A stretch of 64,000 nucleotides of DNA, taken from the sequence record NZ_CP118102.1; one strand, 5' to 3'. The notes beneath the pieces are model-generated. The model did no database searches. It saw only the letters and a program-made list of their open reading frames with translations, and was not told where the DNA came from. Position numbers and translations under genes: made by a program. This DNA comes from a plasmid. Shown here one piece after another: positions 1-25,400 of the stretch; position 1 is the stretch's first letter; each line of letters opens with the position of its first letter.

Positions 1-81
1 GTTTTCCTTGGCCGTATGACCTAGTTTCTTCTGGAGTTGTTGAACGTTTTCCTTTGGTGTCGTTAGCCGTTTGGTATTCAC
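1..81 (-). CDS. Group II intron reverse transcriptase/maturase, N-terminal fragment (partial, runs off the window)
   Basis: GTG start at 81..79 with an aggagg RBS. The N-terminal peptide VNTKRLTTPKENVQQLQKKLGHTAKEN is typical of intron-encoded proteins. It is absent from the ORF track because it is truncated. Confidence 0.4.
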   Translation of the reverse strand, partial: MNTKRLTTPKENVQQLQKKLGHTAKEN

Positions 82-478
82 TAATTCGTACCTCCTAAAA
101 AAACATGCACAAAGCAGGGCTCCTTCCCTCCTGCAGGTTGTGTTGTCCTGCAGTTCCTCAGTATTATGAGCCCCTCGGACTCCCTTCCTGCAAGTAGATC
201 ATTTCGTCTTTTGGACTTATAGACCACTTTGCTACGGTTTAGCCGGGGTTCGGCTTCCCCTTGTCCCTCTTGCGAGGCCTCTTTGACGACGCGGCAGGAT
301 TCACTTGATGTTACGGCCTGGTATGTTGCTCGCTCTGTCTCCGACAGATACTTTTGTCGATACGCTTCTACGCACAGTTTTCATCATACGTAGGTATCCT
401 AGCTACACAGGGGCTTGGCCCCTCCCGTGACCGGACTTTCACCGGCTAGAAGATGCGTGCTTGGCTGGGCACGCGCTT
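1..478 (-). mobile_element. Probable group II intron, 5' portion. The structured GC-rich domain I-IV RNA lies upstream of the intron-encoded protein start, and the element continues beyond the window start.
   Basis: Minus-strand 81..1 reads RBS aggagg then GTG-N-T-K-R-L-T-T-P-K-E-N-V-Q-Q-L-Q-K-K-L-G-H-T-A-K-E-N, which resembles N-termini of bacterial group II intron reverse transcriptase/maturases. The preceding ~400 nt is GC-rich and hairpin-dense, unlike the surrounding AT-rich DNA. The exact 5' splice site was not resolved. Confidence 0.35.
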
Positions 479-641
479 AATAGAAGAAAAGCAGCATATC
501 ATGATGATCTGACCTGCTGCTCTTTAATGATGATTTAAATTTATTCTGTTGATAGAGAGGACACTGTGTACGGTGTATGGATTTTCCCCTTACTGTGATC
601 TGCTTTCATTCCATTTAAAACAATTCCTATTTAGAAGGGAA

Positions 642-887
642 TTACTTATGCAGCCGATCACTTATTTCAGTAAGATTCTCAGCAAACCCCACGAATACTC
701 TATCATCTATAACTATAGTTGGAACTATCTGCTTCCCCGTTAGTTTCCGAACCTCTTCTGCATACGTGGCATCCTCTTCGCAATTATATTCAGTAAAGGA
801 TACCTGATGTTCATTGAAAAATCGTTTAGCATAATTGCAATCACTACAAGTTGGAATCGTATAAATCTTAACAGAATTTCTACTCAT
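642..887 (-). CDS. Glutaredoxin-like protein (NrdH/YruB-type thioredoxin fold)
   Basis: 81 aa with N-terminal IYTIPTCSDCNYAKRFF (CxxC redox motif in a beta-alpha-beta context) and a C-terminal VPTIVID motif typical of Grx/NrdH. Confidence 0.6.
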   Translation of the reverse strand: MSRNSVKIYTIPTCSDCNYAKRFFNEHQVSFTEYNCEEDATYAEEVRKLTGKQIVPTIVIDDRVFVGFAENLTEISDRLHK

Positions 888-7943: not shown

Positions 7944-8273
7944 ATGTCACATGAACAGTATAAACAATGTATAGAGGAATGCTTACGATGTATGGTGACT
8001 TGTAATCACTGCTATGATGCTTGTTTAAAAGAAGAAGACACTAAAATGATGGCAGAATGTATCCGTTTAGATCGGCTTTGTGCTGACATCTGCTCTTTTG
8101 CTGCAACAGCAATGAGCAGTAATTCACCATTTATCAAAGAAATTTGCTCATTGTGTGCTGAGATTTGCCAAGCATGTGGTGATGAGTGCAAAAAACATAA
8201 TCATGACCATTGTCAAAAATGTGCGGAAGCTTGTTTTAAATGTGCAGATGTATGTCGTAACATGGCTGCATAA
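7944..8273 (+). CDS. Csp3/YhjQ-like four-helix-bundle Cys-rich copper storage protein (DUF326)
   Basis: ~18 Cys in repeated CxxxC spacing (CIEECLRCMVTCNHCYDAC...CADICSFAA...CSLCAEICQACGDECKK...CQKCAEACFKCADVCR). The start is chosen at the ATG with correct aaggag spacing; the ORF track start at 7875 is likely too early. Confidence 0.65.
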   Translation: MSHEQYKQCIEECLRCMVTCNHCYDACLKEEDTKMMAECIRLDRLCADICSFAATAMSSNSPFIKEICSLCAEICQACGDECKKHNHDHCQKCAEACFKCADVCRNMAA

Positions 8274-9354: not shown

Positions 9355-9387
9355 TTAATTTAATTTTGTTAAACTAATCTGCCCGTT
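9355..9387. repeat. Left part of ~145-bp repeat copy A, interrupted by the IS110 insertion
   Basis: ttaaactaatctgcccgtt matches ttaaacaaacctgcccgtt at 20780..20798. Confidence 0.6.
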
Positions 9388-10964
9388 CGTATTATGAGGT
9401 CACCAGATCTTTCTGGTCGACCTCTTTTTTGTTTGGTCGTAAGATAGCGGTAGCCGGGGATCGAGCGTATCTGCCCGTGGGACTTGGATCCCGAGAGCTA
9501 TTCTGTTCATCCCCCCTACTTGTTCAACCATGGTTAGGCTGGTTGGGACGTTGATCCCGTATCACATGCGATAGTGTGGAAAACAAGAAGGTTAGGGGTT
9601 ACCGGTGAATATACTTTGGGAGTGATGTCATGAATCCAGTCATTGGTTTGGATGTGTCCAAGGGAGAGAGCCATGCACAAGCTTTTTTAGACCGCGGAGA
9701 AGCTCATGGGAAGATCTTTAGATTTAATCATGATCTAGAGGGATTATCGGCTTTTCTTAATTATGTTAGAGCGGTAGAATCAGTTGCAGGCATAAGCCCT
9801 TGTATTGTGATGGAGGCAACAGGTCATTATCATAGCCCTGTTGTTCAGTTTCTGGATGAGCACCAGTATCTATACATCGTCATTAATCCGTTAATCTCAT
9901 ATGAAGCTAAAAAGACTAATTTGAGACGCGTCAAGACGGATGCTGCTGATGCCTATCAACTTGGGGCCCTGTTCTATAAAGAAGAATTCGAACCCATCAA
10001 AAAACGGGGGCAGCATCTCATGAATTTACGCTATCTCACGCGTCAGCATGAATCTTTAACGGGTATGTATGTTCAAGTGAAGCTGCAGTTCCAGGCTATT
10101 CTAGATCAGGTTTTTCCTGAATACCATGGTGTGTTCGGTGACCTCTATTCGAAAGTTTCTCTTCGATTCCTAGCTTTACACCCGACCTCTAAAGAAATCC
10201 TGGAAATGTCGGAGCAGGAAATTTCAACAGAGATACACCACCTGATCGCACGAGGCAAATCCACCTCATGGAGTTTGGAACGTGCTCAAATTCTAATGGC
10301 TGCAGCTAAGCGAAACCCCTTTAAGGAGACGGCATTTCCAAGTCATCTGATCTCCATGCAACTGCTCATTAAATTGCTTCTTCAATACCAGGACCATCTA
10401 GCAGACCTTGATAAATCGATAGAGATCCTGGTTGAAGAGTTACCTGAATATGATTTAATCCAATCGATACCTGGTATCGGTACTAAAATTGCTGCAACAA
10501 TTTTGGCTGAGATTGGGGAAATCGATCGATTCGATCACGCAAAGAAGCTGGTGGCTTTTGCTGGTGTTGATCCCAGTGTATTTGCTTCAGGTAAGTTTGT
10601 GGCAACCCAAAACAGAATCACGAAACACGGCTCCAGAAGGCTTCGTACAGCCCTGTATCAAGCTGTGCAATGTGGTATTCGTAGTAATAGAAACAAGAAA
10701 TTAAGAACTTACTACGACAAAAGCGTGCTGAAGGAAAGCTTTTCAAAGTAGCGGTAATTGCTTGTGTAAACAAACTCATCCACTGGATTTTTGCTATCTT
10801 GACTTCGAAAGAAGCATTTCGGCTAGAATAAGTTGAATGAAATTCAAAGATATGAAATATATTCCTGTGCCGAAGGGGACGGTTATTTATCATGCCCTTT
10901 TTAAAGTATACCACCTCATGAAGTCGCAATTAATAATTAAATATTGACAAGCTATTAGCTGGAA
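9388..10964 (+). mobile_element. IS110-family insertion sequence (~1.58 kb) with a structured 5' non-coding region
   Basis: Boundaries come from alignment of split repeat copy A to intact copy B (20770..20920). There are no terminal inverted repeats, as is usual for IS110. The 5' region contains ATCTGCCCGT, identical to the left target flank. Confidence 0.7.
9630..10751 (+). CDS. IS110-family transposase (DEDD N-domain + Transposase_20 C-domain)
   Basis: GLDVSK, MEATGHYH and IPGIGTKIAATILAEIGEIDRF motifs, plus a C-terminal KHGSRRLRTALYQAV. Confidence 0.9.
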   Translation: MNPVIGLDVSKGESHAQAFLDRGEAHGKIFRFNHDLEGLSAFLNYVRAVESVAGISPCIVMEATGHYHSPVVQFLDEHQYLYIVINPLISYEAKKTNLRRVKTDAADAYQLGALFYKEEFEPIKKRGQHLMNLRYLTRQHESLTGMYVQVKLQFQAILDQVFPEYHGVFGDLYSKVSLRFLALHPTSKEILEMSEQEISTEIHHLIARGKSTSWSLERAQILMAAAKRNPFKETAFPSHLISMQLLIKLLLQYQDHLADLDKSIEILVEELPEYDLIQSIPGIGTKIAATILAEIGEIDRFDHAKKLVAFAGVDPSVFASGKFVATQNRITKHGSRRLRTALYQAVQCGIRSNRNKKLRTYYDKSVLKESFSK

Positions 10965-11095
10965 TAGCTTAATGAAAATGGAGCAGTTGCCGACTGGCAA
11001 TCTGCTCCATGCTATTTGTCTATATAAATAAAATAACTGCTTGGCTGCAAATTTACATTGTTTTATATAATCGGCGAAGTGCATCTCTCATTTCA
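10965..11095. repeat. Right part of ~145-bp repeat copy A (contains a minus-strand terminator hairpin and the last 12 codons of the PTP-like gene)
   Basis: agcttaatgaaaatggagcagttgccgactggcaatctgctccat...acattgttttatataatcggcgaagtgcatctctcat aligns to 20800..20915. Confidence 0.6.
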
Positions 11096-11481
11096 GGCTT
11101 AATATTGATATCGGGTCTCTTAGATTTTGCAGTTAGTTCAGCAGAATCTACATCCTTCTCGTGTCCTAATTCAAGCAGAAGTCCTGTTGAAACCGTTCCT
11201 GTACGATTACGCCCTCCTGAACAGTGAAAGTATACCTTCTTCCCTTCATCCACTGCTTTCTTAACAGCATGAATAGCCCTTTTAATCGATTCGTCTTGAT
11301 GATCTTGATCTTCAACGATAGGGAAATGGTGACGAGTGGTACTCTCACGTAACTCTAAGTTGCCACTTGAACCGTCCCGCAAGTCAAACACATCCGTTAT
11401 CCCTTGCTCCTTTACCGCCTGTTCAATATCATCAGCACCACCTATATAGACTTTATCTTTAATAAGTTCATGATAACTCAT
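11053..11481 (-). CDS. Dual-specificity/tyrosine phosphatase-fold protein (CX5R P-loop)
   Basis: VYFHCSGGRNRTG signature. It is the last gene of the minus-strand ars operon. The C-terminal 12 aa (MRDALRRLYKTM) are encoded inside the repeat. Confidence 0.6.
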   Translation of the reverse strand: MSYHELIKDKVYIGGADDIEQAVKEQGITDVFDLRDGSSGNLELRESTTRHHFPIVEDQDHQDESIKRAIHAVKKAVDEGKKVYFHCSGGRNRTGTVSTGLLLELGHEKDVDSAELTAKSKRPDINIKPEMRDALRRLYKTM

Positions 11482-11561
11482 TGCTGGTTTCCTCCAAATT
11501 CTCTAAGATAACTTCTATCCCTAAAGAAGCCGAGAATTTAATCTCGGCTTACTTTGTACGC

Positions 11562-11981
11562 TTACTGGCCCGTTTTCGCGAACGTTTCGATACGCTGTCC
11601 AATCTCATCACGTACCCGTTGGAATACTGACCATTTTTCTTCGTCTGTTCCTTGGGCTTTCGCTGGATCATCAAATCCCCAGTGTTCACGGCGAACATTT
11701 GGTGGAGTAATTGGACATTTATCAGCTGCATCACCGCAAAGAGTGATGACAAGATCAGCGGAATTCAGAATAGTTGGGTCGATCATATCGGATGTTTGAT
11801 TGGAAATATCAATTCCCACTTCGTTCATTGCTTTTACCGCATTTGGATTTAATCCATGGGCTTCAATTCCTGCACTATACACATTCCATTCGTTCCCAAG
11901 GTGTTTTTTAGCCCAGCCTTCAGCCATTTGACTGCGGCAAGAGTTTCCAGTACACAAGAAATAGATCGTTTTTTCACTCAT
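11562..11981 (-). CDS. arsC: Thioredoxin-coupled arsenate reductase ArsC (LMW-PTP family)
   Basis: [19 protein letters not shown]-loop, with the downstream Cys in [10 protein letters not shown]. Near-identical architecture to Bacillus/Staphylococcus ArsC. Confidence 0.95.
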
Positions 11982-12019
11982 ATTGTTATCTCTCCTTTAA
12001 TAAGTCCAAACTATATTTT

Positions 12020-13315
12020 TTATAAAATGAGGAGCCATAGGTACAAACCTAAGAGTGTAATAAACAGGGTTGGAATCGTAATAATTATCCCTGTCTTAAA
12101 GTAGGTTCCCCATGATATTTTGATGCCTTTCGTTGAAAGTACATGCAGCCATAGAAGCGTTGCTAATGAACCGATTGGAGTAATTTTAGGTCCTAAATCA
12201 GATCCGATGACGTTTGCGTAAACCAAAGCTTCTTTTATGACTCCTGTAGCATGAGTCGCATCAATAGCAAGCGCATTAATCATTACTGTCGGCATGTTAT
12301 TCATAATGGATGAAAGAATAGCTGCAATGAATCCCATTCCCATCGTTGCTACAAATAATCCCTGCTCTGCCACAGATGCAATTGCATCAGCCAAGAGATC
12401 TGTCATGCCTGCATTTCGTAGTCCATATACAACAACGTACATCCCGATTGAAAAGAATACGATATTCCAAGGTGCTCCTTTAACTACTTCTTTCGTTTGT
12501 ACAGCAGGACTTCTTCTTGCCAGCATTAAGAAGGCTAAAGCGATGATTCCAGCAACGATAGAAACTGGAATACCCACGAACTCACTTACAAAGTAACCAA
12601 CAACGAGTATGGCGAGTACGTACCAAGATATCCGAAACATGGCTCTGTCCTTTATCGCTTCACTTGGAGCTTTAAGATCGGAGTCGTCAAATCGCTTAGG
12701 AATACTTCTTCTGAAGAAAATATAAAGAACAAGAATACTTGCCACCAAAGCAAAAATATTTGGAATGATCATCCGACTGGCATACTCGTTGAAGCTGATG
12801 CCAAAGAAATCGGCAGACACGATATTGACCAGGTTACTTACAACCAGCGGAAGCGATGTTGTATCTGCAATAAAACCACTGGCAATGATAAACGGAAACA
12901 CTTTTTTCTCATCAAAATTCAGGGCTCGTACCATAGCAAGCACAATCGGTGTCAGAATGAGTGCGGCTCCGTCATTTGCAAAGAAAGCCGCTACGATTGC
13001 ACCGAGTATACTAATGTACACAAACATTCGAATCCCATTTCCTTTGGCTGCTCGAGCCATATGCAGCGCAGCCCATTCAAAGAATCCAATTCGATCCAAG
13101 ATTAATGAAATTAAGATAATGGCCACAAACGCTAATGTTGCATTCCATACGATCTGGGTAACATCCCAAACATCTTGAAAACTGACAACTCCAACTAACA
13201 GAGCTAGGACAGCACCGCCACATGCAGACCAACCAATGTTTAAATTTTTTGGTTGCCATATGACGAGCACTAGTGTAACTAAAAAAATGATACAAGCTAA
13301 TATTGTCGACACCAC
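12020..13315 (-). CDS. arsB: Arsenite efflux permease ArsB (ArsB/NhaD family)
   Basis: 431 aa polytopic protein with an ArsB-like N-terminus ([23 protein letters not shown]). Confidence 0.9.
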
Positions 13316-13493
13316 TATAAAACCTCCAACTTGACTATCTTCTAAGGTTTAACAAGACATACACAGCATGCTTTGACCTTATTTGTAAGAATTTCACCGT
13401 GCCAGAATATAAGCTCTAGGATTTGTCATACACCGCCTCCTCTATTCCGAGATCATTATATAAGCATATGCTTATATATACAACCCACTTTTT

Positions 13494-13847
13494 TTATTTT
13501 CCTCCGATACAAGAAGATTGTAATCCCTGTTTATTAAGCTCCGTCAGAATTTGCTGAGCATGAGGTAAATTTTGCAGAACAGCCTGAATATACGGTTTGT
13601 CCTCCACATGCAACGAATAGTAAATCCACTGACTTCTTCTCGTTTCTTTTACAAGATCCAGGGATTTCAGCTTCCGGATATGCTGACTTATCGCCGGCTG
13701 AGACATTTCAAAGATATCCACAAATTCGCATACGCACCATTCGCGTTCTTGTAAAAGCAACATCATCGTAAGTCTTGTCTTATCTCCTAGAAGCTTCAAA
13801 CGATCCGCAGCGAGAGATAAATCAGATGTGGTTACAATTCCACTCAT
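13494..13847 (-). CDS. arsR: ArsR/SmtB-family As(III)-responsive repressor
   Basis: CVCEFVDIFEMSQPAISQHIRKL wHTH with the CVC metalloid-binding motif. First gene of arsR-arsB-arsC. Confidence 0.85.
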   Translation of the reverse strand: MSGIVTTSDLSLAADRLKLLGDKTRLTMMLLLQEREWCVCEFVDIFEMSQPAISQHIRKLKSLDLVKETRRSQWIYYSLHVEDKPYIQAVLQNLPHAQQILTELNKQGLQSSCIGGK

Positions 13848-14008
13848 GATCCTACTCCCCTTTCTTACTCTCGATTATTTCTGTTGTATTCATCATACAT
13901 AACATCTATCTATTTATCAAATTATTTTGATGTATTGATACAACACTGACTCTATGTTAATATTTAATTAATCAAAAATATTTGATTATTATAAGGGAGA
14001 ATATTCTC

Positions 14009-14332
14009 ATGACGATAGACGCGACATTCTTGGCCAGTTATGAGGCCAAATTTAAAGCATTAGCGGATCAGAAGCGACTTCTCATTATCAATAAACTTTG
14101 TCAGCATGAAGAAGTTTGCGTTTGTGATCTTGTAGAAAAGATGGAAATACCTCAGTCCAAGCTCTCCTATCACCTTAAGATACTTCTAGATGCCGGATTC
14201 ATACTCAAAGAAACAAGAGGTACTTGGAGCTATTACAGGCTAAATCAAAGTGAAATCAATAAAGTACTGTCTCCGGAATTGTGCTGTATATTTACAAAAC
14301 CGAATCGTACAACCGATCAAACCACATGCTAA
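14009..14332 (+). CDS. Second ArsR/SmtB-family regulator, divergent from arsRBC
   Basis: VCVCDLVEKMEIPQSKLSYHLKIL. Start placed at the ATG with an aagggag RBS (the track ORF starts earlier). Confidence 0.8.
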   Translation: MTIDATFLASYEAKFKALADQKRLLIINKLCQHEEVCVCDLVEKMEIPQSKLSYHLKILLDAGFILKETRGTWSYYRLNQSEINKVLSPELCCIFTKPNRTTDQTTC

Positions 14333-14361
14333 TCTAATTTGTAACGCCAAGGAGGATTCTT

Positions 14362-15315
14362 ATGTATAAATCAGTTATTATTGGTACCGGTCCTGCAGGA
14401 TACACAGCAGCCATTTATCTTGCACGTGCTAATTTGAACCCTCTCATTATTGAAGGACTTCAGCCTGGTGGACAGTTAACCACAACGACCGAAATTGAGA
14501 ACTTCCCGGGTTTTCCTGAAGGGATCATGGGTCCAGAATTAATGGATAACATGCGTAAACAAGCCGAACGTTTTGGAGCTGAGTTTAAATCCGGATTTGT
14601 AAGCGAAGTAGACTTCAGTCAACGACCTTTTAAACTCAAAATTGATGGCCAGCCTGAGATCGAAGCAGAATCCGTTATTATCTCCACTGGAGCATCAGCT
14701 AGATATCTCGGTATACCTAATGAGCAAGAATACGTCGGGCGTGGCGTGAGTACCTGTGCTACATGTGATGGATTCTTCTTCCGCGGTAAGAAAATCATTG
14801 TCGTAGGCGGTGGAGACTCTGCTATGGAGGAAGCTAACTTCTTAACTCGATTTGCTTCTGAAGTCGTATTAGTCCATCGTCGGGATGATTTAAGGGCCTC
14901 TAAAATTATGCAAGACCGGGCAAGATCAAACCCGAAAATAACGTTTGCCTTAAATCGAACACCAGTAGAAGTACTTCCCAAAGAAATGGGGATTCAAGGA
15001 TTAAAAGTCCTTAATAATGAAACGGGACAAGAAGAAGTGATTGAGGCGGACGGATTATTTGTCGCTATTGGACACACGCCCAATACCTCTTTCCTAGGTG
15101 GACAAATCAATACGGACGCTCATGGATACATTGTTGTAAATCCAGGAACGACAGAAACCAATATCCCAGGTGTTTTTGCTTGTGGAGACGTACAGGACTC
15201 TAAGTACCGTCAAGCGATCACCGCTGCAGGATCAGGTTGTATGGCTGCTATGGATTCTGAAAAATTCCTGGAGGGTTCGGCCATACAGGACTGGAGCGGC
15301 ATTCTAGATCAATAA
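14362..15315 (+). CDS. trxB: Thioredoxin-disulfide reductase (TrxB; ArsT-like in ars context)
   Basis: GTGPAGYTAAIY FAD site, CATCDG redox centre and GGGDSAMEEA NADPH site. Confidence 0.9.
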   Translation: MYKSVIIGTGPAGYTAAIYLARANLNPLIIEGLQPGGQLTTTTEIENFPGFPEGIMGPELMDNMRKQAERFGAEFKSGFVSEVDFSQRPFKLKIDGQPEIEAESVIISTGASARYLGIPNEQEYVGRGVSTCATCDGFFFRGKKIIVVGGGDSAMEEANFLTRFASEVVLVHRRDDLRASKIMQDRARSNPKITFALNRTPVEVLPKEMGIQGLKVLNNETGQEEVIEADGLFVAIGHTPNTSFLGGQINTDAHGYIVVNPGTTETNIPGVFACGDVQDSKYRQAITAAGSGCMAAMDSEKFLEGSAIQDWSGILDQ

Positions 15316-15397
15316 TCTCTCTTCAAAAGCTCATCAAACATTACTGATGAGCTTTTGTTTTATATTAAAGAAAATAGTCTACAGTGGAGGCAGCAAA

Positions 15398-15907
15398 ATG
15401 GAGATACGTATTCGACCTGCAATCGAAAGTGATGCTCGAGGTATTATGGAGATCTATAATTACTCAATCGTAGTTGAGAGAAATGCAACCTTTGATACAA
15501 TACCTAAAACGTTAGAAGATCGAACCCAGTGGATACGATCCCAAGGGGATCGGTATCCCATTGTAGTTGCAGAATTGAATGACCAGATTATTGGCTGGGC
15601 CTCTGTGTCCAGTTACCGGACAAGGGAGTGTTATCAAGGGGTTGGAGAATTTTCTGTATATGTACATAAAGACTTTAGAAAGCAAAATTTAGGCTACAAG
15701 CTGCTTGATCAACTTATTAAGGTGTGCAAGGATGCAGGTTATTGGAAGCTGCTCTCTCGTATCTTCACCTTTAATCAAGGAAGCCGTAAACTATGTGAAC
15801 GGTGTGGATTTAGAGAAGTTGGGATATATGAAAAACATGCGAAATTAGGGGATGATTGGCTCGATGTAGTCATAGTAGAGAAAATCATTTCCGAAAATCT
15901 AATCTAG
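15398..15907 (+). CDS. GNAT acetyltransferase of the phosphinothricin acetyltransferase (PAT) family; ArsN1-like
   Basis: Alignable to PAT/YwnH-type enzymes (IYNYSI...PIVVAE...GWASVSSYRTRECYQGVGEFSVYVHKD...GYKLL). Lies in an operon with arsR2-trxB. Confidence 0.6.
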   Translation: MEIRIRPAIESDARGIMEIYNYSIVVERNATFDTIPKTLEDRTQWIRSQGDRYPIVVAELNDQIIGWASVSSYRTRECYQGVGEFSVYVHKDFRKQNLGYKLLDQLIKVCKDAGYWKLLSRIFTFNQGSRKLCERCGFREVGIYEKHAKLGDDWLDVVIVEKIISENLI

Positions 15908-15916
15908 TGGAGATTA

Positions 15917-15946
15917 AAAAGGCCCGTCATCGGCGGGCCCTTTTAA
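15917..15946. terminator. Bidirectional rho-independent terminator
   Basis: aaaaaggcccgtcatcggcgggccctttt; a GC stem flanked by A and T runs between convergent genes. Confidence 0.6.
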
Positions 15947-15961
15947 TTATTTATTTGTAGC

Positions 15962-17356
15962 TTAGCTACAACAAGAAGACACTTTCGCAGCAGGTGTTGG
16001 AGAACAGCAGCTCTCCTCAACTTGATTGGATACATTATTTATACTGCATACACCCGTCTCTGGTAATTCCAACTCCACTTTTTCGGCTCCTTCGTAATCC
16101 CCTGCCAGATATGCAGCAATGGATCTCACCTGCTCATAGCCTGTCGCCATAAGAAAGGTTGGAGCTCGGCCGTAGCTCTTCATGCCCACAATATAGAAGT
16201 TCTTTTCCAAATGCCGAAGTTCTTTTTCCCCGTGTGGACGAACCGTTCCACAGCTGTGTACATTAGGATCAATAAGTGGAGCTAGAGTCTCTACACTTTC
16301 CGTACTTTGATCGATACTCAGTCGCAGCTCGCCTAAGAACGAGAAATCCGGACGACTTCCTGTGTTTACAACAATTTCATCTATGCCCTCAACTTGTTTT
16401 ACTTCACCAAGACTCGTGCCGGTAATGTTGATTTTACCATCCACTTGTTTCAACTGATGAATATGGAATGGTGTAAAGACCTTTATTCTACCTTGATCTA
16501 CAAGTCGATGAATTCGACTTCCGAGTGCTCCTCTAGCCTTCAGTTGGTCATTGTCTTCCCCACCATACGCATTTCCTACTTTACTCTTTCGCATGATCCA
16601 AAAGATTTTTGTATTTGGATCTTTAGACAGTTCCAGCATTGAGTTAATTGCCGAATGCCCTCCTCCAATTACCGCCACTTTCTTACCATTGAATCGTTCA
16701 CCATCTCTGCTATTAATATCAGGGATGCCATAATAAATATGCTCTTTAAGATCTCCTTCTTCCTTCGTCCAAATCCCACTGCTATGGACAGGATTCGCTT
16801 TCCCCCAAGTGCCTGTCGCATCAACCACTGCTTTTGCTTCATACAGGGTTGTCAATTGGTTTTCCTCCACCAGAACAATAAATGGCTGGCTTTCACGCCC
16901 TAAGGTCTTCATTTTGTCCATATCTTTTCTGCTGACTGCTGTTACTTTTGCATTCAGCTTTATGTTGGATTCTATCTCAGGCAAACGGGATAGTGGGTAA
17001 AGATACTGCTCCAAAAGCTCTTTACCAGTTGGTAAAACATCATCATCTGGACGTTCCCAACCCGCTTTCTCGAGTAATCTAGCCGCTGCTTTATCGATGT
17101 TGTATTGCCAAGGGGAAAATACTTGTACATGCCCCCATTCCTTAATATGACTTCCCACCTCAGCTCCAGACTCAAAGATGATAATATTTTCTCCTCTTTC
17201 AATGAGGTGTGCTGCTGCGGCAAGTCCGATTGGTCCGGCACCAATGATGGCTACAGGTAGATTGGATGACGGGTTACCGCCCGTTTTAACGACATCTTTG
17301 TTGGTTTCAGAAGCACAACAATTATTTTGAACTTGTGTAAATTGGATTTCTTTCAT
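15962..17356 (-). CDS. FAD/NAD(P)-binding oxidoreductase with vicinal cysteine pairs at both termini
   Basis: Two Rossmann motifs (IIGAGPIGLAAAAHL and VAVIGGGHSAINSM). N-terminal NNCCAS and C-terminal SCCSPTPAAKVSSCCS. Confidence 0.6.
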   Translation of the reverse strand: MKEIQFTQVQNNCCASETNKDVVKTGGNPSSNLPVAIIGAGPIGLAAAAHLIERGENIIIFESGAEVGSHIKEWGHVQVFSPWQYNIDKAAARLLEKAGWERPDDDVLPTGKELLEQYLYPLSRLPEIESNIKLNAKVTAVSRKDMDKMKTLGRESQPFIVLVEENQLTTLYEAKAVVDATGTWGKANPVHSSGIWTKEEGDLKEHIYYGIPDINSRDGERFNGKKVAVIGGGHSAINSMLELSKDPNTKIFWIMRKSKVGNAYGGEDNDQLKARGALGSRIHRLVDQGRIKVFTPFHIHQLKQVDGKINITGTSLGEVKQVEGIDEIVVNTGSRPDFSFLGELRLSIDQSTESVETLAPLIDPNVHSCGTVRPHGEKELRHLEKNFYIVGMKSYGRAPTFLMATGYEQVRSIAAYLAGDYEGAEKVELELPETGVCSINNVSNQVEESCCSPTPAAKVSSCCS

Positions 17357-17380
17357 TTAACATACCTCTCTTCATGTTTT

Positions 17381-17403
17381 TATTTGCATTTTGCAAGTAT
17401 ATG
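17381..17403. promoter_or_regulatory. MarR-type operator palindrome, site 1 (upstream of the flavoprotein gene)
   Basis: TATTTGCATTTTGCAAGTATAT; inverted repeat TTGCA-TTT-TGCAA with extended ATAT arms. Confidence 0.55.
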
Positions 17404-17429
17404 TTGATTACGTAGGGTGATCTTGAAGA

Positions 17430-17879
17430 TCACCCCATTGGTGTACAGCATTTATCTGATTTAAGCATACTTTCATTTAACAACTTAATGGATCGGAGAA
17501 CCGTTTCTCGCTCAAATTCATTCATAAAAGAGAAAACCTCATTTAAGTAGCTGTTCATATTCTCATCGATCGTCGTAGCCACGAATTTTCCTTCAGTCGT
17601 CAGATGCAGAATATATACTCTACGATCCTCTGGAAGTGTTGTTTTCTTAACTAAGTTCTTTTTAATCAATGTTTGTACCTGACGGCTAAATGTGGTTATA
17701 TCCATGCCAAGCGTATCCGCGATCTGCTGCATAGATGGCTCATGCTGTCGATCAATTTCATAAAGTATATGGCTTTGGATCATGGATATATCATTAGTCC
17801 CTACACTACAACAATTCTTATTCAAAAGGCCGAATCGGCGTGCAGTTACTTGTAGTAGTTCTCTCGGACTTTCTTCCAT
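17430..17879 (-). CDS. MarR-family transcriptional regulator with two vicinal Cys pairs
   Basis: wHTH core (MQQIADTLGMDITTFSRQVQTLIKKNLV), plus CC at residues ~23-24 and KCCTPMG at the C-terminus. Confidence 0.8.
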   Translation of the reverse strand: MEESPRELLQVTARRFGLLNKNCCSVGTNDISMIQSHILYEIDRQHEPSMQQIADTLGMDITTFSRQVQTLIKKNLVKKTTLPEDRRVYILHLTTEGKFVATTIDENMNSYLNEVFSFMNEFERETVLRSIKLLNESMLKSDKCCTPMG

Positions 17880-17910
17880 CTAAGCTCACCTCTTGATTCA
17901 GTTATACTAT

Positions 17911-17935
17911 ATATATTTGCATTTTGCAAGTATAT
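17911..17935. promoter_or_regulatory. MarR-type operator palindrome, site 2 (marR promoter; autoregulation)
   Basis: ATATATTTGCATTTTGCAAGTATAT; identical core to site 1. Confidence 0.55.
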
Positions 17936-18048
17936 GATTTGAATCATCCATGTATATATCCGATCACCAAGTCAATATTCAATATTAAAGGGGCAGAGCG
18001 TTAAAATCTTAAAAACAAATTTAGACTTCTGATTTTAAACTAACCATC

Positions 18049-19098
18049 CTAATTTAAAATTTTTTTGGCTTGATCGATTACATATCGAGCATCGGGTCCA
18101 ACACCACGAAGTGTAGCAGATGAAAAAGACCGCTGTCCAGGTATTCCCACATAATAAAGTCCTTCTACAGCAGTACTTACCCCTTTCTTTTGTAACGGTT
18201 CTTCATTCACATTTAAAGCATCTAACCTCTTTAAATATTCATAATTTGATCGATAACCCGTTGCAAATATGACCTGATCTATCTTCTCTTTCTCACCGTT
18301 TTCCCAAACCACTCCTTCTTCATAAAAGGCACTGAACATCGGTCTTTGTTGTGGTTTTCCTTCCTTTAATCGCTGTCGATAATGATCTAGATCCATTACG
18401 GATGAATTAAGGGCTAACTTTTTACCGATGGGCCAAACGGAATCGATACCAAACCATTTAAACCAATCATGAATATCTCGACCTAAAATACGCTGCGGCA
18501 CCAGAGATACAGGTTCTCTTACTGCGAGTGTAGCATGTGCTACTTCCGCTAATTCCATGCTAATTTGTACTGCTGAATTCCCTCTCCCCACAACAATTAC
18601 CCTTTGATCTTTGTATGCTTCAGGGGATCTATAAAATGCAGAATGAGTTATAGACCTTTTGTAAGTTTGCTCTCCGGTTATTTGAGGAACATAGGGCTTG
18701 TTAAACGATCCGGTAGCACAGATAAGAGTCCGGGATAAGTACCTTTTGCCTGAAGAAGTATGAATTTCAAAAACACCTGTATTATTCCGGAGCACCTCTA
18801 TGACTCGGGTATGAAAAACCAGAGGCAACTCAAAAAATCTCGCGTATTCATTTAAATACGCTATCACTTCATCTCGAAGTGGATAACGCTCCCCCGGAGA
18901 TGCCAAAGGAAGACCCGGTAATGATGAGTACTTAGCCGGTGAAAATAACTTAAGGCTGTCATAATAATAAGGCCAAGATCCTGCAGCCTGCCCCCCAGCT
19001 TCTAAAATCAAAAAAGAACGTCCACTCGTCTTTAAATAATATCCCGAGGCTAAGCCTGCCTGGCCGCCGCCAATAACAATCGTATCCCAAATTTTCAT
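18049..19098 (-). CDS. Flavin-containing monooxygenase-like NAD(P)/FAD oxidoreductase (ArsO/CzcO-like)
   Basis: IVIGGGQAGLASGYYL and VIVVGRGNSAVQI dinucleotide motifs. 349 aa, downstream of the MFS gene in the same operon. Confidence 0.6.
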   Translation of the reverse strand: MKIWDTIVIGGGQAGLASGYYLKTSGRSFLILEAGGQAAGSWPYYYDSLKLFSPAKYSSLPGLPLASPGERYPLRDEVIAYLNEYARFFELPLVFHTRVIEVLRNNTGVFEIHTSSGKRYLSRTLICATGSFNKPYVPQITGEQTYKRSITHSAFYRSPEAYKDQRVIVVGRGNSAVQISMELAEVAHATLAVREPVSLVPQRILGRDIHDWFKWFGIDSVWPIGKKLALNSSVMDLDHYRQRLKEGKPQQRPMFSAFYEEGVVWENGEKEKIDQVIFATGYRSNYEYLKRLDALNVNEEPLQKKGVSTAVEGLYYVGIPGQRSFSSATLRGVGPDARYVIDQAKKILN

Positions 19099-19123
19099 TT
19101 GTACCCTTCCCTTTCCTACATCA

Positions 19124-20377
19124 TTATGAGACTTGATACAAGCGTTTCCGCCGATGATTATAAAATAAAAACAGACTACACAACCATAAAAGCAGAGCGG
19201 CCGCAGTGTTAATCATCGTATCTCCGAACACGGAGAGTAAGGTGAATCCCAAAAAAGGGCCTAATGCTGCTCCCACATCGACAATCATGGAGTAAAAAGA
19301 TACGACATGATGCCGATTGGAGGACGTAGAAGCGTACTGAGCAGCGTCTGCATCAGTAAGGGTTGTCACAATAGAAGAAATAAGAAGTAAGGCGATCAAA
19401 GTAAGTAACCAAGCTAATGTATTGACATTCAAGCCCAAAATGGCAAACATTATTCCTCCGGCTATAAAACTTACGGTTAACCAAACCGTCCTTGATTTGG
19501 ATTTATCGCTAAGCTTACCTGCCCAATAACCTAAGATCGGATCTGAAAACCATTTACATGCAAGCAGAATGCCGGTAATCGTAGCTGCTCCGATAGAGCT
19601 CAATAAAGCTATCTTTGAAAAGTCCTGCAGTTCAATCCAATAACTTAAAGTGGATTTCATATAACCTTGAAATAGGAGGGAAACACTGAATCCAGCAAAA
19701 AGAATGATGAGGAGTTTTGAATCTATTTTTAACATTGCTCGCTGGTCCAATTGTGTTAATTCTTTTTTTGTCATTTCATTACTGCCTGGCTTACGAATAA
19801 AGAACAATAACGGGATGGAGATCAAAGCAAATATACCAAATCCCATAAGTACAAATGAAACCCCGAAATTTTCTGACAACAGAGAGCCAAACACCATACC
19901 CACCACAGCCCCACAGCCTGAGAGCCCATTAAACAGTCCAGTAAGCTTACCCGGCTGGCTGCTTACGGTAACAGCTTCAACGATCGAAAGTTGACCGGCT
20001 TGTCGGATAAATGACCAAGCAATGCCCCAAATACATCTTAATACGAGCAAAAAGGCAAAACCTTGAAAGTATCCGTAGGAAAAAGTAGTAATTATTGTGA
20101 GTATAATTGCAATCATTAATCCACTTTTAATGGAATACCGGGTATAGAACCAGCCAATGAGCGGATGAATTGGAATGCGGATAAAACGATTAATAGATAG
20201 TAGAACCCCTACCTGCCATAAAGCAGTTAGTCCAAAATCCTTGCTATACACAGGTAATACTGCGTAAAGCATTGCATCACCAAATAAACAAATTGCTGTT
20301 ATTATTGCGATAATTCTCAGATTATTTTCAACTTGTGGTGTATTAAGTGGTTGATTCCTCTTCCTTTCAACGAGCAA
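19124..20377 (-). CDS. MFS transporter (candidate arsenical/organoarsenical efflux, ArsK/ArsJ-like by context)
   Basis: 417 aa, ~12 TM. Two MarR-type operator sites lie upstream. Confidence 0.7.
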   Translation of the reverse strand: MLVERKRNQPLNTPQVENNLRIIAIITAICLFGDAMLYAVLPVYSKDFGLTALWQVGVLLSINRFIRIPIHPLIGWFYTRYSIKSGLMIAIILTIITTFSYGYFQGFAFLLVLRCIWGIAWSFIRQAGQLSIVEAVTVSSQPGKLTGLFNGLSGCGAVVGMVFGSLLSENFGVSFVLMGFGIFALISIPLLFFIRKPGSNEMTKKELTQLDQRAMLKIDSKLLIILFAGFSVSLLFQGYMKSTLSYWIELQDFSKIALLSSIGAATITGILLACKWFSDPILGYWAGKLSDKSKSRTVWLTVSFIAGGIMFAILGLNVNTLAWLLTLIALLLISSIVTTLTDADAAQYASTSSNRHHVVSFYSMIVDVGAALGPFLGFTLLSVFGDTMINTAAALLLWLCSLFLFYNHRRKRLYQVS

Positions 20378-20570: not shown

Positions 20571-20769
20571 ATATAACTTAATCAAATAAATAGATCAGGG
20601 GGATCATTCCATCTTTAGAGAATTTTATTATTACGAACACACAATGAACCAAGAGAAAAATACAACAGAATGGCTAGATGACAGTATATTCAGAACAATA
20701 GAGACCCTCCTCTCAAGTAATGTAAAAACGACCTTCTATTAAGAAGGTCGTTCTGTATTGACGATTCGG

Positions 20770-20920
20770 CAATTTAGAATTAAACAAACCTGCCCGTTAG
20801 CTTAATAAAAATGGAGCAGATTGCCGACCGGTAATCTGCTCCATTCTATTTGAATAGCTGCAAACTTTACATTGTTTTATACAATCGGCGAGGTGCATCT
20901 CTCATCTCCTTTATGATTTT
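20770..20920. repeat. Intact copy B of the ~145-bp repeat, containing a minus-strand intrinsic terminator
   Basis: Stem atggagcagatt/aatctgctccat (12 bp) with loop gccgaccggt, followed on the minus strand by TTTTTATT. The 3' part overlaps the end of gene 20911..21570. Confidence 0.6.
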
Positions 20921-21570
20921 TCTCCACCTGACATATCTTGATCGAAGGGGATTTTAATCGTTGGAGTCTCATGAGTTTTAAGCTCTTGAGAAATGGAGTG
21001 AACATTTTGGATTAATACTGCAGCATTCTCTTTAAACTCAGTGTAATTTAAAAAAATAGTCAAAAGAACAATGATCAGTCTTACTGTTGGAAAATAGAAA
21101 TATTTAAGGAAAACTTTAAGATCCATTCCTTCAGGTGGTTTGAGATCGGATATCAATTCCTGTACTTGTTCTCTGGTTATATATTCAACTTTTGATTCTT
21201 CATCATTTTCATTTGGTATCGCAATTTTTTCTGGTATTTGTGTTTTTACAAATTTAAGGAGTTTAACATGAAAATCTATTGGGAATGTAAGTGAATTTGA
21301 GTATGTACTTGTAGAAATAATGCTGTTTATTACCTTTGCTGTATCATCTTGATCAAGATCGTAGGTAGTAGATATGGCTTTCGATGCTTTATGCACAGTG
21401 TCCACAAGTTGAGTTAAAGTTTCAGGCAGCGACTTTAGCGAGTCCGGCATTTGAGGTATCATTACATCGCTTAGTGATTTCAGTTTTTTAAGCTGTTCGT
21501 TTATATCTATTTCAGTTCCTTCCAACTCTTTAAGACTTTCCTGAATCAAAATATTTAAATCTCTACCCAT
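20911..21570 (-). CDS. Hypothetical coiled-coil protein with a C-terminal TM helix
   Basis: 219 aa with no recognisable catalytic motifs. It terminates immediately at the repeat copy B boundary. Confidence 0.45.
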   Translation of the reverse strand: MGRDLNILIQESLKELEGTEIDINEQLKKLKSLSDVMIPQMPDSLKSLPETLTQLVDTVHKASKAISTTYDLDQDDTAKVINSIISTSTYSNSLTFPIDFHVKLLKFVKTQIPEKIAIPNENDEESKVEYITREQVQELISDLKPPEGMDLKVFLKYFYFPTVRLIIVLLTIFLNYTEFKENAAVLIQNVHSISQELKTHETPTIKIPFDQDMSGGEKS

Positions 21571-23799: not shown

Positions 23800-25400
23800 C
23801 TCCAGATTTTTTACAGCATGTTATTCTCCGTTAGCCACCCATGCCCCTTTCGGGGCACCACAGAATAATGAAAATTTTTGGGATACGTTTTATACTATTC
23901 TTACGGCTGGCGAGGGAGGTCGATAAACTATGGTGTCCTGAACCCTTCCGTTAGTCTGACCCCAGCGACCTCGGTGCACCACGGAATGTCGCTCCTTTTT
24001 AGGAAGCACGCAGGGTAGATTAACCCTTTTTGGTTGTTGCACCAGCCCCCAATTTCACTTTGCCGTAGAAAGGTGATTATCATGGATGTTCTCATTGAAC
24101 GAGCATGCGGTTTGGATGTTCACAAGAAGAACATTACTGCATGCATTATTACACCTGAAGGAAAGGAGATTAAAACCTTCCGTACTCACACAGTCTTTAT
24201 CTTGGAACTCATCGATTGGATTAAGGATCATCGCTGCACTCATGTGGCCATGGAGAGCACCGGTGTGTTTTGGAAACCCATCGTGAACCTGCTGGAAGCC
24301 GAAGATATCGAATTCCTAGTCGTCAACGCACAGCACATAAAAGCAGTTCCCGGACGGAAAACCGACGTGAAAGATGCAGAATGGATTTGCTATCTACTTC
24401 GACATGGTCTGCTAAAACCTAGCTATATTCCCGATCGCAACCAACGTGAAATGAGAGAGCTTGTTCGCTATCGCCGGAGTCTGATTCAAGAACGTTCTCG
24501 TGAACATAACCGTGTTCAAAAAGTTTTGGAAGGCGCCAATATTAAGCTCGCTTCTGTCGTATCAGACATTATGGGGCTCTCAAGCCGGGACATGCTTGAG
24601 GCCATGGTCCATGGTGAAACCGATCCGGAAACACTGGCTGGCTTTGCACGCAGATCCATGAAGAGAAAGAAAGAAGAACTCGAGCTCGCGCTGAAAGGCA
24701 ACATGAGTTCACATCAACGGATGATGTTAAAAACCATGCTTACCCATATCGACTTCCTGAACGAACAAATCATCGAGCTGGATATGGAGGTAGCCAAACG
24801 GCTCGCCCCTTTCCAAAAAGACCTGGATCGACTGGATAGCATTCCGGGAATCGCAGCCCGAACGGCAGAACAAATCCTCGCCGAGATTGGCACGGACATT
24901 GCTTCTCGTTTCCCGAGTTCAGCCCATTTATGCTCATGGGTTGGTCTTGTTCCAGGTCACAATGAAAGTGCAGGCAAACGCAAGTCCTCCAAAACACGTA
25001 AAGGCAACAAATATCTCCGATCCGCACTCATCGAAGCTTCTCATTCCATACGGGGATCTGATAATTATCTCGGTGCCCAGTACAGGCGAATTGCAGCTCG
25101 CAAAGGAAGGCACCGCGCAGCTGTTGCTGTAGCCCATTCCATCATGACCATTGCTTACCATTTACTAACCAGGCAAGAAGATTATAAAGACTTAGGCTCC
25201 GATTATTTTGAGAAACGACACCAAGATGCGATCGTCAAACAAACCGTTCGAAAGCTAGAAAACCTTGGATTTACCGTAACCCTGGCCACATCTGAAGTAT
25301 CCTAATTAACCTGCTCAAACCAAGCGACGCAGCCTTTTTAAAAATCTTGCAAGCTGCGCCTAGTTTCGTATTGTCTTTTTTAGAGTTACGCTATGAATTA
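23800..25400 (+). mobile_element. Second IS110-family element (ends approximate)
   Basis: Transposase ORF plus a ~280-bp structured 5' leader. The leader has two similar stem-loop modules (23826..23870 and 23945..23992) sharing TCCGTTAG and GCACCACrGAAT. Confidence 0.55.
24082..25305 (+). CDS. IS110-family transposase
   Basis: GLDVHKK, VAMESTG and IPGIAARTAEQILAEIG motifs. Start at the ATG with a gaaaggtg RBS. Confidence 0.9.
   Translation: MDVLIERACGLDVHKKNITACIITPEGKEIKTFRTHTVFILELIDWIKDHRCTHVAMESTGVFWKPIVNLLEAEDIEFLVVNAQHIKAVPGRKTDVKDAEWICYLLRHGLLKPSYIPDRNQREMRELVRYRRSLIQERSREHNRVQKVLEGANIKLASVVSDIMGLSSRDMLEAMVHGETDPETLAGFARRSMKRKKEELELALKGNMSSHQRMMLKTMLTHIDFLNEQIIELDMEVAKRLAPFQKDLDRLDSIPGIAARTAEQILAEIGTDIASRFPSSAHLCSWVGLVPGHNESAGKRKSSKTRKGNKYLRSALIEASHSIRGSDNYLGAQYRRIAARKGRHRAAVAVAHSIMTIAYHLLTRQEDYKDLGSDYFEKRHQDAIVKQTVRKLENLGFTVTLATSEVS

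Follow-up and report, generated by a model that had tools for sequence, protein, structure and literature searches.

A repeat around a plasmid arsenic block joins a phosphatase gene tail, a terminator-like hairpin and a dispersed palindromic box

Why does an arsenic-resistance block on a bacterial plasmid lie between two direct copies of one short repeat? The question arises in 64,000 nucleotides of plasmid record NZ_CP118102.1 (the window, meaning that whole stretch), which are 100% identical to NZ_CP118110.1 and NZ_CP118105.1, Paenibacillus urinalis plasmids, both from blood isolates. An original prediction, made from the letters of the window, had described a ~145-bp repeat with an intrinsic terminator and a conserved 12-codon mini open reading frame (ORF), and had proposed a MITE-like element (MITE, a miniature transposable element with inverted repeats) that marks or mobilises the arsenic (ars) island, or a docking site for insertion sequences (IS). 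We find that the repeat is a composite of a phosphatase gene tail, a terminator-like hairpin and a palindromic box.

Both copies were recovered, in direct orientation and with all features at or within a few bases of where they had been placed (Table 1). Copy B is uninterrupted; copy A is in two pieces, the right one spanning 10966–11094, separated by a 1578-bp element of the IS110 family. BLASTN aligns the right piece of copy A to copy B with 102/132 identities and 23 gap positions (E=3e-24). Ungapped blocks are 91% identical over 32 nt and 91% over 46 nt, or 90.9% over 55 nt and 93.9% over 49 nt in a second comparison; the copies thus differ by ~6–9% substitutions and by two indels (13 nt and 8 nt). 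In the direction of the minus strand, the one that carries the adjacent genes, each copy runs from the last 13–14 phosphatase codons through a 20–40-nt spacer and a hairpin to a 27-nt box, with box and hairpin making up the left ~75 nt of the repeat and the phosphatase 3′ end its right third. The box reads TTAAAC(T/A)AA(T/C) CTGCCC GTTAGCTTAAT on the plus strand, with 10-nt inverted arms around a 6-nt spacer, and TTAAGCTAAC GGGCAG GTTAGTTTAA on the minus strand. A count that covered the 64-kb window and the full 190-kb plasmid gave no further copy of the complete ~145-bp unit, and no second box is detectable between hairpin and stop codon in the window copies.

The right third of the repeat belongs to a gene. 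The last 14 codons of the phosphatase gene (11053–11094) form the right end of copy A, so the codons of the mini-ORF are, as first proposed, the C-terminus of a protein tyrosine phosphatase-like ars gene. Its homologues in Bacillus, Paenibacillus and related genera (49–64% identity) all end IKPEM(K/R)xxL(K/R)RLY; this family-wide conservation argues that the codons originated in the phosphatase gene, with position B receiving a copy of them, rather than the other way round. At position B, similarity to copy A ends at ~20908, and an unrelated ORF of 219 amino acids (20911–21570, minus strand) stops 2 nt upstream. On the 190-kb plasmid the 3′ part of the phosphatase gene is found at these two places and nowhere else, which argues that the mini-ORF is a relic.

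The mini-ORF had been described as free-standing, with its own ribosome-binding site, as would suit a leader or micro-peptide gene. The ATG-to-TAA frame is indeed intact and AGGAG (20906–20910) is adjacent, but this motif abuts the ATG with a spacing of 0 and so is not a well-placed ribosome-binding site. The frame, moreover, is simply the conserved phosphatase end with one Leu-to-Pro change relative to copy A, and no independent copy was found anywhere searched. Neither a ribosome-binding site at functional spacing nor conservation independent of the parent gene was seen, and we give next to no credence to a functional small gene here. The mini-ORF of copy B reads as a leftover of the phosphatase gene, and annotators should not enter the 12-codon ORF as a gene; what the repeat holds is a phosphatase relic plus a junction element.

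The middle of the repeat is the hairpin. A simple terminator scanner made no call, probably because the stem is interrupted, and hairpins were then assessed by thermodynamic folds. In both window copies a GC-rich stem follows closely on a gene end and leads into a minus-strand U-tract, so the minus-strand, T-tailed hairpin stands; its stem is 13–14 bp with one bulge or mismatch, not 12 bp. Copy A's hairpin is terminator-like, the predicted intrinsic terminator of the arsR-arsB-arsC-phosphatase operon. The same combination of GC-rich stem-loop and U-tract just after a gene recurs in the wider family introduced below, where the gene strand gives the better RNA fold in 17/21 members and an A-run before the hairpin on the box strand yields a U-tract on the gene strand.

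Phosphatase genes elsewhere bear on the origin of the two copies. In other Paenibacillus genomes the gene also closes ars operons, with its own terminator, and at four other loci (L151–L154) no box follows it. Such genes without a box argue that the gene-terminator-box junction arose once and that copies A and B both descend from it. Copy A would then be the live 3′ end of the ars operon, its box split afterwards by the IS110 element, and copy B a diverged relic of the same junction. On the most economical reading, copy B stems from a second or earlier copy of the operon end, which would have lost all of the phosphatase gene but its last 14 codons when a subsequent rearrangement introduced the 219-amino-acid ORF.

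The left part of the repeat has a much wider distribution. Scanning with the pattern WAAYMTGCCCGTTAGCTTRAT gave more than 116 genomic loci among the matches listed, against ~9 expected by chance on our own information-content estimate. Almost all are in Paenibacillus (Paenibacillaceae), with some in Cohnella, Brevibacillus, Neobacillus, Lederbergia and Halalkalibacter, and exact boxes number 1–8 per genome among these matches, with more degenerate copies besides. Two other Paenibacillus plasmids hold partial matches to terminator plus box, and a hidden Markov model (HMM) of the box finds ~10 more full or partial copies on the P. urinalis plasmid, clustered at 130–142 kb. Copy number therefore differs by part: the whole unit, and the similarity of its phosphatase part, are confined to two loci of the plasmid, whereas terminator plus box form a family dispersed across the Paenibacillaceae and some Bacillaceae. 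A third member lies in the window at 475–525, downstream of a glutaredoxin-family gene (window 642–887, plasmid 165431–165676); insertion of a group II intron into its box (5′ end at ~window 474) has put the left half 1.8 kb off, beyond the window. A search of Rfam with the window region and 18 loci gave no relevant family. Literature searched with the box sequence and its complement gave chance partial matches in unrelated papers, and literature on Paenibacillus integron-like, cassette or MITE elements did not describe the element; we thus found no description of it in Rfam or in the literature searched.

Family members were compared across their flanks, with chromosomal loci inspected as 8-kb windows and ORFs around boxes called mechanically. 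The left boundary is sharp, conservation ending ~9 nt before the pattern. To the right, members are built as box, box-hairpin or box-hairpin-second box, and their flanks fall into three classes: a hairpin plus a second, degenerate box (class 1, ~100 nt in total, with hairpins that vary in sequence and keep their pairing), a structured element of ~190 nt (class 2), and tandem 20-mers (class 3); the remaining right flanks are unique sequence. The class-3 flanks carry 1–4 tandem copies of the 20-mer CAGTCTAATACTTTATTTT after the box in 8–13 loci (L017, L035, L052, L066, L094, L111).

These comparisons bear on the MITE proposal, in which the ~145-bp unit would be a non-autonomous transposon at both island ends that mobilises the island as a composite element. 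Two direct copies do bracket the island and part of the unit is multi-copy, as that proposal asks. A third of the unit, however, is the native, family-conserved end of a gene, and the window copies end inside that gene; the unit has no terminal inverted repeats, the second box, where present, being a direct repeat of the first; its centre varies in sequence and length; and no autonomous IS has the box as its ends. The miniature element that does occur nearby (class 2) is a different element that landed beside the box. Inspection of ~120 copies, on either side of each, brought no target-site duplication to notice, although no formal search for one was run. We reject the MITE reading, rating it very improbable.

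The proposed role as an IS-docking site, in contrast to the MITE reading, is borne out. The IS110-family element splits the box of copy A at CCCGTT/AGCTTAAT (slash, insertion point), and joining 9387 to 10966 restores a box like that of copy B. It encodes a DEDD transposase with both Pfam domains of its family, is precisely inserted and has no terminal inverted repeats, and related IS in other plasmids align from its first base. Two group II introns on the same plasmid sit in boxes at CCCGTTA/GCTTAAT, one base from the IS110 position, and elements of the IS200/IS605 type or their derivatives directly follow the box on its 3′ side in roughly one third of the copies sampled, sometimes in tandem (L025, L026, L028, L031, L114, L116 and others). 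Three kinds of mobile element (IS110, IS200/IS605 and group II intron) thus converge naturally on one site.

The IS200/IS605 case explains class 2. In one IS200/IS605-family element (plasmid 131969–132909, L149), tnpA is flanked by the two halves of the class-2 element, which is a miniature derivative of this family: it carries repeated ATGTTCTTGTCC motifs, ends ...TTGTCCCCCGACA, and shares its ends with that IS, not with the box. The introns were located as well. One contributes its 5′ part as window 1–474, minus strand (plasmid NZ_CP118110.1 ~163478–165263; ltrA 163579–164748), and a 99%-identical copy occupies another box at plasmid 138552–140486, just after the terminator hairpin. Class C introns tend to land after terminators, and the intron positions here match.

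How the IS110 element may have chosen the box is suggested by its 5′ non-coding region, which carries ATCTGCCCGT (9469–9478), identical to the target's left half and in the same sense. This guide-like match is what would be expected of the target guide of a bridge RNA; a 10-nt match as good arose in 27/2000 shuffles, for a single insertion. The element is single-copy in every contig with that exact transposase, so target specificity rests on one insertion. Work by Durrant et al. and Hiraizumi et al. in 2024 is said to have established that target choice in the IS110 family is guided by a bridge RNA. Our element resembles such systems in its DEDD transposase with a Transposase_20 domain, its precise insertion without inverted repeats and the copy of the target half in its 5′ region; it differs in having no Rfam match, the comparison being made on sequence alone. 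A second IS110-family transposase gene (24082–25305, plus strand, 407 amino acids) shows no nucleotide similarity to the first.

We next consider how boxes are arranged relative to genes. Relative to the box, the neighbouring gene is on the opposite strand in 86/109 cases on the left and 87/109 on the right (~80%). From the stop codon of the upstream gene to the start of the element is a matter of tens of bases, and the element sits 50–190 nt ahead of the next gene start. The 116 loci hold 208 boxes, co-oriented in 50 of the 52 multi-box loci; the median inter-box interval is 1.39 kb, and exactly one ORF lies in 41/89 intervals. Boxes and ORFs alternate strictly in L086+L080, L044, L024 and L097, and boxes and single ORFs do so in Bacillus sp. 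FJAT-28004, P. eucommiae and Lederbergia citri; the Bacillus sp. FJAT-28004 array, at 2.70–2.80 Mb, is complete. The array ORFs are miscellaneous accessory genes, among them GNAT, NUDIX, VanZ and acetamidase. On the P. urinalis plasmid itself, 129–142 kb of NZ_CP118110.1 holds two small box arrays in opposite orientation, with NPCBM, GNAT, sugar O-acetyltransferase and DUF4367 genes.

Boxes also mark where related sequence begins and ends. The loci of P. xylanivorans (L076) and P. vandeheii (L101) have 2.3 kb in common, exactly from box to box, with unrelated DNA outside, and P. xylanivorans and P. pabuli (L123) have in common only the other side of the same box. Single-gene segments 96–99% identical occur in different species. 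Among internal endpoints of homology between loci, 33/176 fall within 40 nt of a box, ~7-fold above the ~2.5% share that we estimate from box density. Taken together, boxes delimit gene modules at mosaic breakpoints between species.

Could the box instead be a transcription-factor operator for the gene downstream, its dispersal reflecting a regulon of accessory and detoxification genes? Its position 50–190 nt before the next gene start at most loci, the 10-6-10 inverted repeat and the frequent neighbourhood of oxidoreductases, acetyltransferases and MerR or TetR regulators would suit such a role. Against this, promoter elements at a constant spacing are not conserved, the flank loses its conservation after ~9 nt, the spacer is as conserved as the arms, and the box often abuts the stop codon of the upstream gene; breakpoints, arrays and box-to-box modules in differing contexts would also go unexplained. 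We hold an operator to be improbable. The idea that the box is a promoter was likewise rejected, there being no positional conservation to its left beyond ~9 nt.

Does the ars block itself behave as a box-bounded module? The block between the two direct copies is as predicted, and spans 11053–20377 with the phosphatase gene. A related block on plasmid pJ45TS6 has arsC-arsB-arsR and arsR2-trxB-arsN1 at 83.5% identity, with different accessory genes, and is bracketed by direct copies of box plus hairpin at 295–340 and 8054–8125; neither the phosphatase gene nor a relic of it was found there. This independent case supports the view that the repeat marks the island, as do the breaks in homology at the boxes. 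The ars block thus appears to be one box-bounded module, like its relative on pJ45TS6. The island may once have been mobilised, but the comparison of strains that the original prediction had called for showed one arrangement in all contigs, with neither an empty site nor an alternative junction.

On this evidence we judge it probable that the composite repeat bounds the ars block as a module and that modules are exchanged at the box. The hairpin would terminate the transcript of each unit, and the box would act at the DNA level as a recombination site for module exchange, in the manner of an integron attC or dif-type core site. A DNA-level role is argued by the position of the box just beyond the terminator, and recombination by its 10-6-10 inverted-arm layout, which is that of a tyrosine-recombinase core site.

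Several points weigh against module exchange at the box. Across 116 loci, no recombinase could be linked to boxes and no protein family is enriched beside them. The plasmid's tyrosine recombinase is Xer-like, and four chromosomal loci with homologues of it have no box within 10 kb; a second Xer-like type, near boxes in 3 loci, resembles Bacillus and Peribacillus plasmid recombinases and possibly represents resolution enzymes. Look-ups by exact protein (phosphatase, IS110 transposase, 219-amino-acid ORF and C40 peptidase; 18–24 contigs each) always returned the same arrangement, IS included; in none of these contigs was the site empty, copy A free of the IS or the ars block joined elsewhere. 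In the same vein, tblastn of the 219-amino-acid ORF found two P. urinalis plasmids only, and metagenomes were scanned twice, once for copy A lacking the IS and once for the 3′ segment of the phosphatase gene, with 0 matches each time. With 10 genes spread over both strands and regulators of its own, the ars block departs from the one-gene units that make up the arrays. The box scan took one genome per species and its loci are those among the matches listed; since family loci were chosen by exact 21-nt match, the array and junction statistics are conditional on that choice. Finally, the mosaic junctions could come from homologous recombination on conserved sequence, although neither box conservation nor the structure of the arrays would be explained in that way.

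These points lend some weight to a plainer account with no role in mobility: an older or second copy of the ars operon 3′ end cut by an unrelated rearrangement, a box that is a repetitive extragenic palindrome (REP)-like, terminator-associated repeat, and junctions left by homologous recombination. It fits the presence of the phosphatase part at two loci only, the ~6–9% difference and indels between A and B, which imply that the event was not recent, the absence of island polymorphism and the failure to find a recombinase. What it leaves unexplained is the strict co-orientation, the single-ORF periodicity and the 7–8 boxes per 8 kb, the ~7-fold enrichment of endpoints and the near-identical single-gene modules across species, and the cross-genus identity of a 21–25-nt sequence beyond the terminator. 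We regard this account as unlikely, if deserving of serious attention, and continue with module exchange at the box.

Among known systems, the genomic organisation of the box elements most closely resembles that of integron attC sites. Like cassette arrays, including clusters of attC sites lacking integron-integrases (CALINs), box arrays consist of co-oriented, mostly single ORFs, each followed by a 60–100-nt site; the cargo is miscellaneous accessory enzymes, and the same unit appears in different contexts across species. The box-hairpin-box layout may parallel attC, in which conserved outer half-sites surround a variable central stem-loop. The half-site AACTAAC/GTTAGTT fits 6/7 positions of the R″/R′ consensus RYYYAAC/GTTRRRY. 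Boxes are invaded both by group II introns and by elements of the IS110 family, and attC sites likewise are hit by more than one kind of element, IS1111-attC elements being one. They are also targets of group IIC-attC introns (PMC3001079).

The differences from integrons are also substantial. All four box arms are the same palindromic half-site, each box is palindromic like a double-strand core site, and conservation extends to sequence (21–25 nt identical across genera), not only to structure. The central hairpin of the family is a predicted RNA terminator, so that units would be separately terminated, unlike those at attC, and some box modules, such as the ars block, comprise several genes and regulators of their own. 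An integrase of the IntI type was not seen; the plasmid recombinase falls below the integron-integrase cut-off, matches in two pieces and is Xer-like. The box hosts are Bacillota, whereas complete integrons were not found in Firmicutes or other Gram-positives (PMC4889954).

Two further systems share features with the boxes. Like REPs and bacterial interspersed mosaic elements (BIMEs), boxes are short, imperfect intergenic palindromes just after genes, occur in modular combinations with other motifs, and are targeted by IS110-family elements; ISPpu9/ISPpu10 and ISPa11, of that family, are IS that target REPs. REPs are high-copy and genome-wide, whereas exact boxes appear to be low-copy per genome among the matches listed, with degenerate copies in addition. 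REPs are not known either to bound single-gene arrays or to lie at mosaic breakpoints. No gene of the REP-associated tyrosine transposase (RAYT) type was seen in the 116 box loci. In Acinetobacter pdif modules, plasmid resistance blocks are bracketed by short inverted-arm sites with a 6-bp spacer, and the same module occurs in different plasmid backbones, as the ars block does here and on pJ45TS6. The pdif sites resemble chromosomal dif and flank modules in alternating orientation; boxes, by contrast, are direct, form long chromosomal arrays and show no resemblance to Bacillus dif.

A bolder proposal follows, which we advance tentatively as possible rather than probable: the box, alone or as box-hairpin-box, would be the recombination site of a new gene-cassette system of Paenibacillaceae and neighbouring Bacillaceae, akin in function to integrons, with a 25-nt palindromic core conserved in sequence, a terminator for each cassette and a recombinase other than IntI, and the plasmid ars islands would be multi-gene cassettes. 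If true, the presence of such native cassette arrays in Paenibacillus, a spore-former of soil and clinic, would change the view of accessory-gene flow in Bacillota, and would explain the modular assembly of metal-resistance plasmids like this one from a blood isolate. The testable objects gained are a defined 25-nt site, complete arrays and near-identical cassettes common to different species.

Table 1. Positions of the repeat, the interrupting element and the bracketed genes (window coordinates).
Feature	Position	Strand	Remarks
Third family member in the window	475–525	+	Right half of box, GCTTAAT, at 475–481; hairpin at ~488–525
Copy A, left piece	9362–9387	+	Short flank plus left half and spacer of box (TTAAACTAATCTGCCCGTT, 9369–9387); BLASTN 23/28 match to 20771–20798
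IS110-family element, 1578 bp	9388–10965	+	Transposase 9630–10751 (373 amino acids), Pfam PF01548/PF02371
Copy A, right half of box AGCTTAAT	10966–10973	+	Sequence comparison with copy B
Copy A hairpin	10978–11010	-	-22.7 kcal/mol, z = -5.9; followed by UUUUCAUU; predicted terminator
Dual-specificity/protein tyrosine phosphatase (DSP/PTP)-like gene, 142 amino acids	11053–11481	-	Last gene of the ars operon; Pfam DSPc/PTP-SAK
Bracketed ars/organoarsenical cargo	11562–20377	both	Between the copies, beside the phosphatase gene
arsC	11562–11981	-	
arsB	12020–13315	-	
arsR	13494–13847	-	
arsR2	13982–14332	+	
trxB	14362–15315	+	
ArsN1 acetyltransferase	15347–15907	+	
NAD(P)-binding oxidoreductase, 464 amino acids	15962–17356	-	
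MarR	17430–17879	-	
Flavin monooxygenase-like oxidoreductase	18049–19098	-	
Major facilitator superfamily (MFS) transporter	19124–20377	-	
Copy B	20771–20908		Uninterrupted
Copy B, intact 27-nt box TTAAACAAAC CTGCCC GTTAGCTTAAT	20780–20806	+	Inverted arms, 6-nt spacer; box HMM score 35.6, E=1e-9
Copy B hairpin	20811–20844	-	-24.1 kcal/mol, z = -5.7; followed by UUUUUAUU
Mini-ORF MRDAPRRLYKTM*, relic of the last 13 phosphatase codons	20867–20905	-	tblastn, 12/13 identical

Some smaller features accompany these loci. The C-terminal tail of the 464-amino-acid oxidoreductase is cysteine-rich (...EESCCSPTPAAKVSSCCS) and MarR ends ...DKCCTPMG; both could be arsenic-binding motifs. A separate small GC hairpin, ACGACCTTCT-ATTA-AGAAGGTCGT (20729–20752), with a T-run on the minus strand, lies outside the repeat, between box B and the MFS operon, which is thus preceded by two terminator-like structures, this one and the copy B hairpin. 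Beside the two small arrays of the P. urinalis plasmid, an Xer-like recombinase gene is divergent at plasmid 127519–128466, in a layout that is integron-like; its homologues elsewhere are without boxes. At L155, L156, L157 and L159 (~9930–9965), Xer-like recombinase homologues are preceded by a conserved 30-bp palindrome, AATTGCATTAAAT-N4-ATTTAATGCAATT, which is unrelated to the box and may be a recombination or regulatory site of their own.

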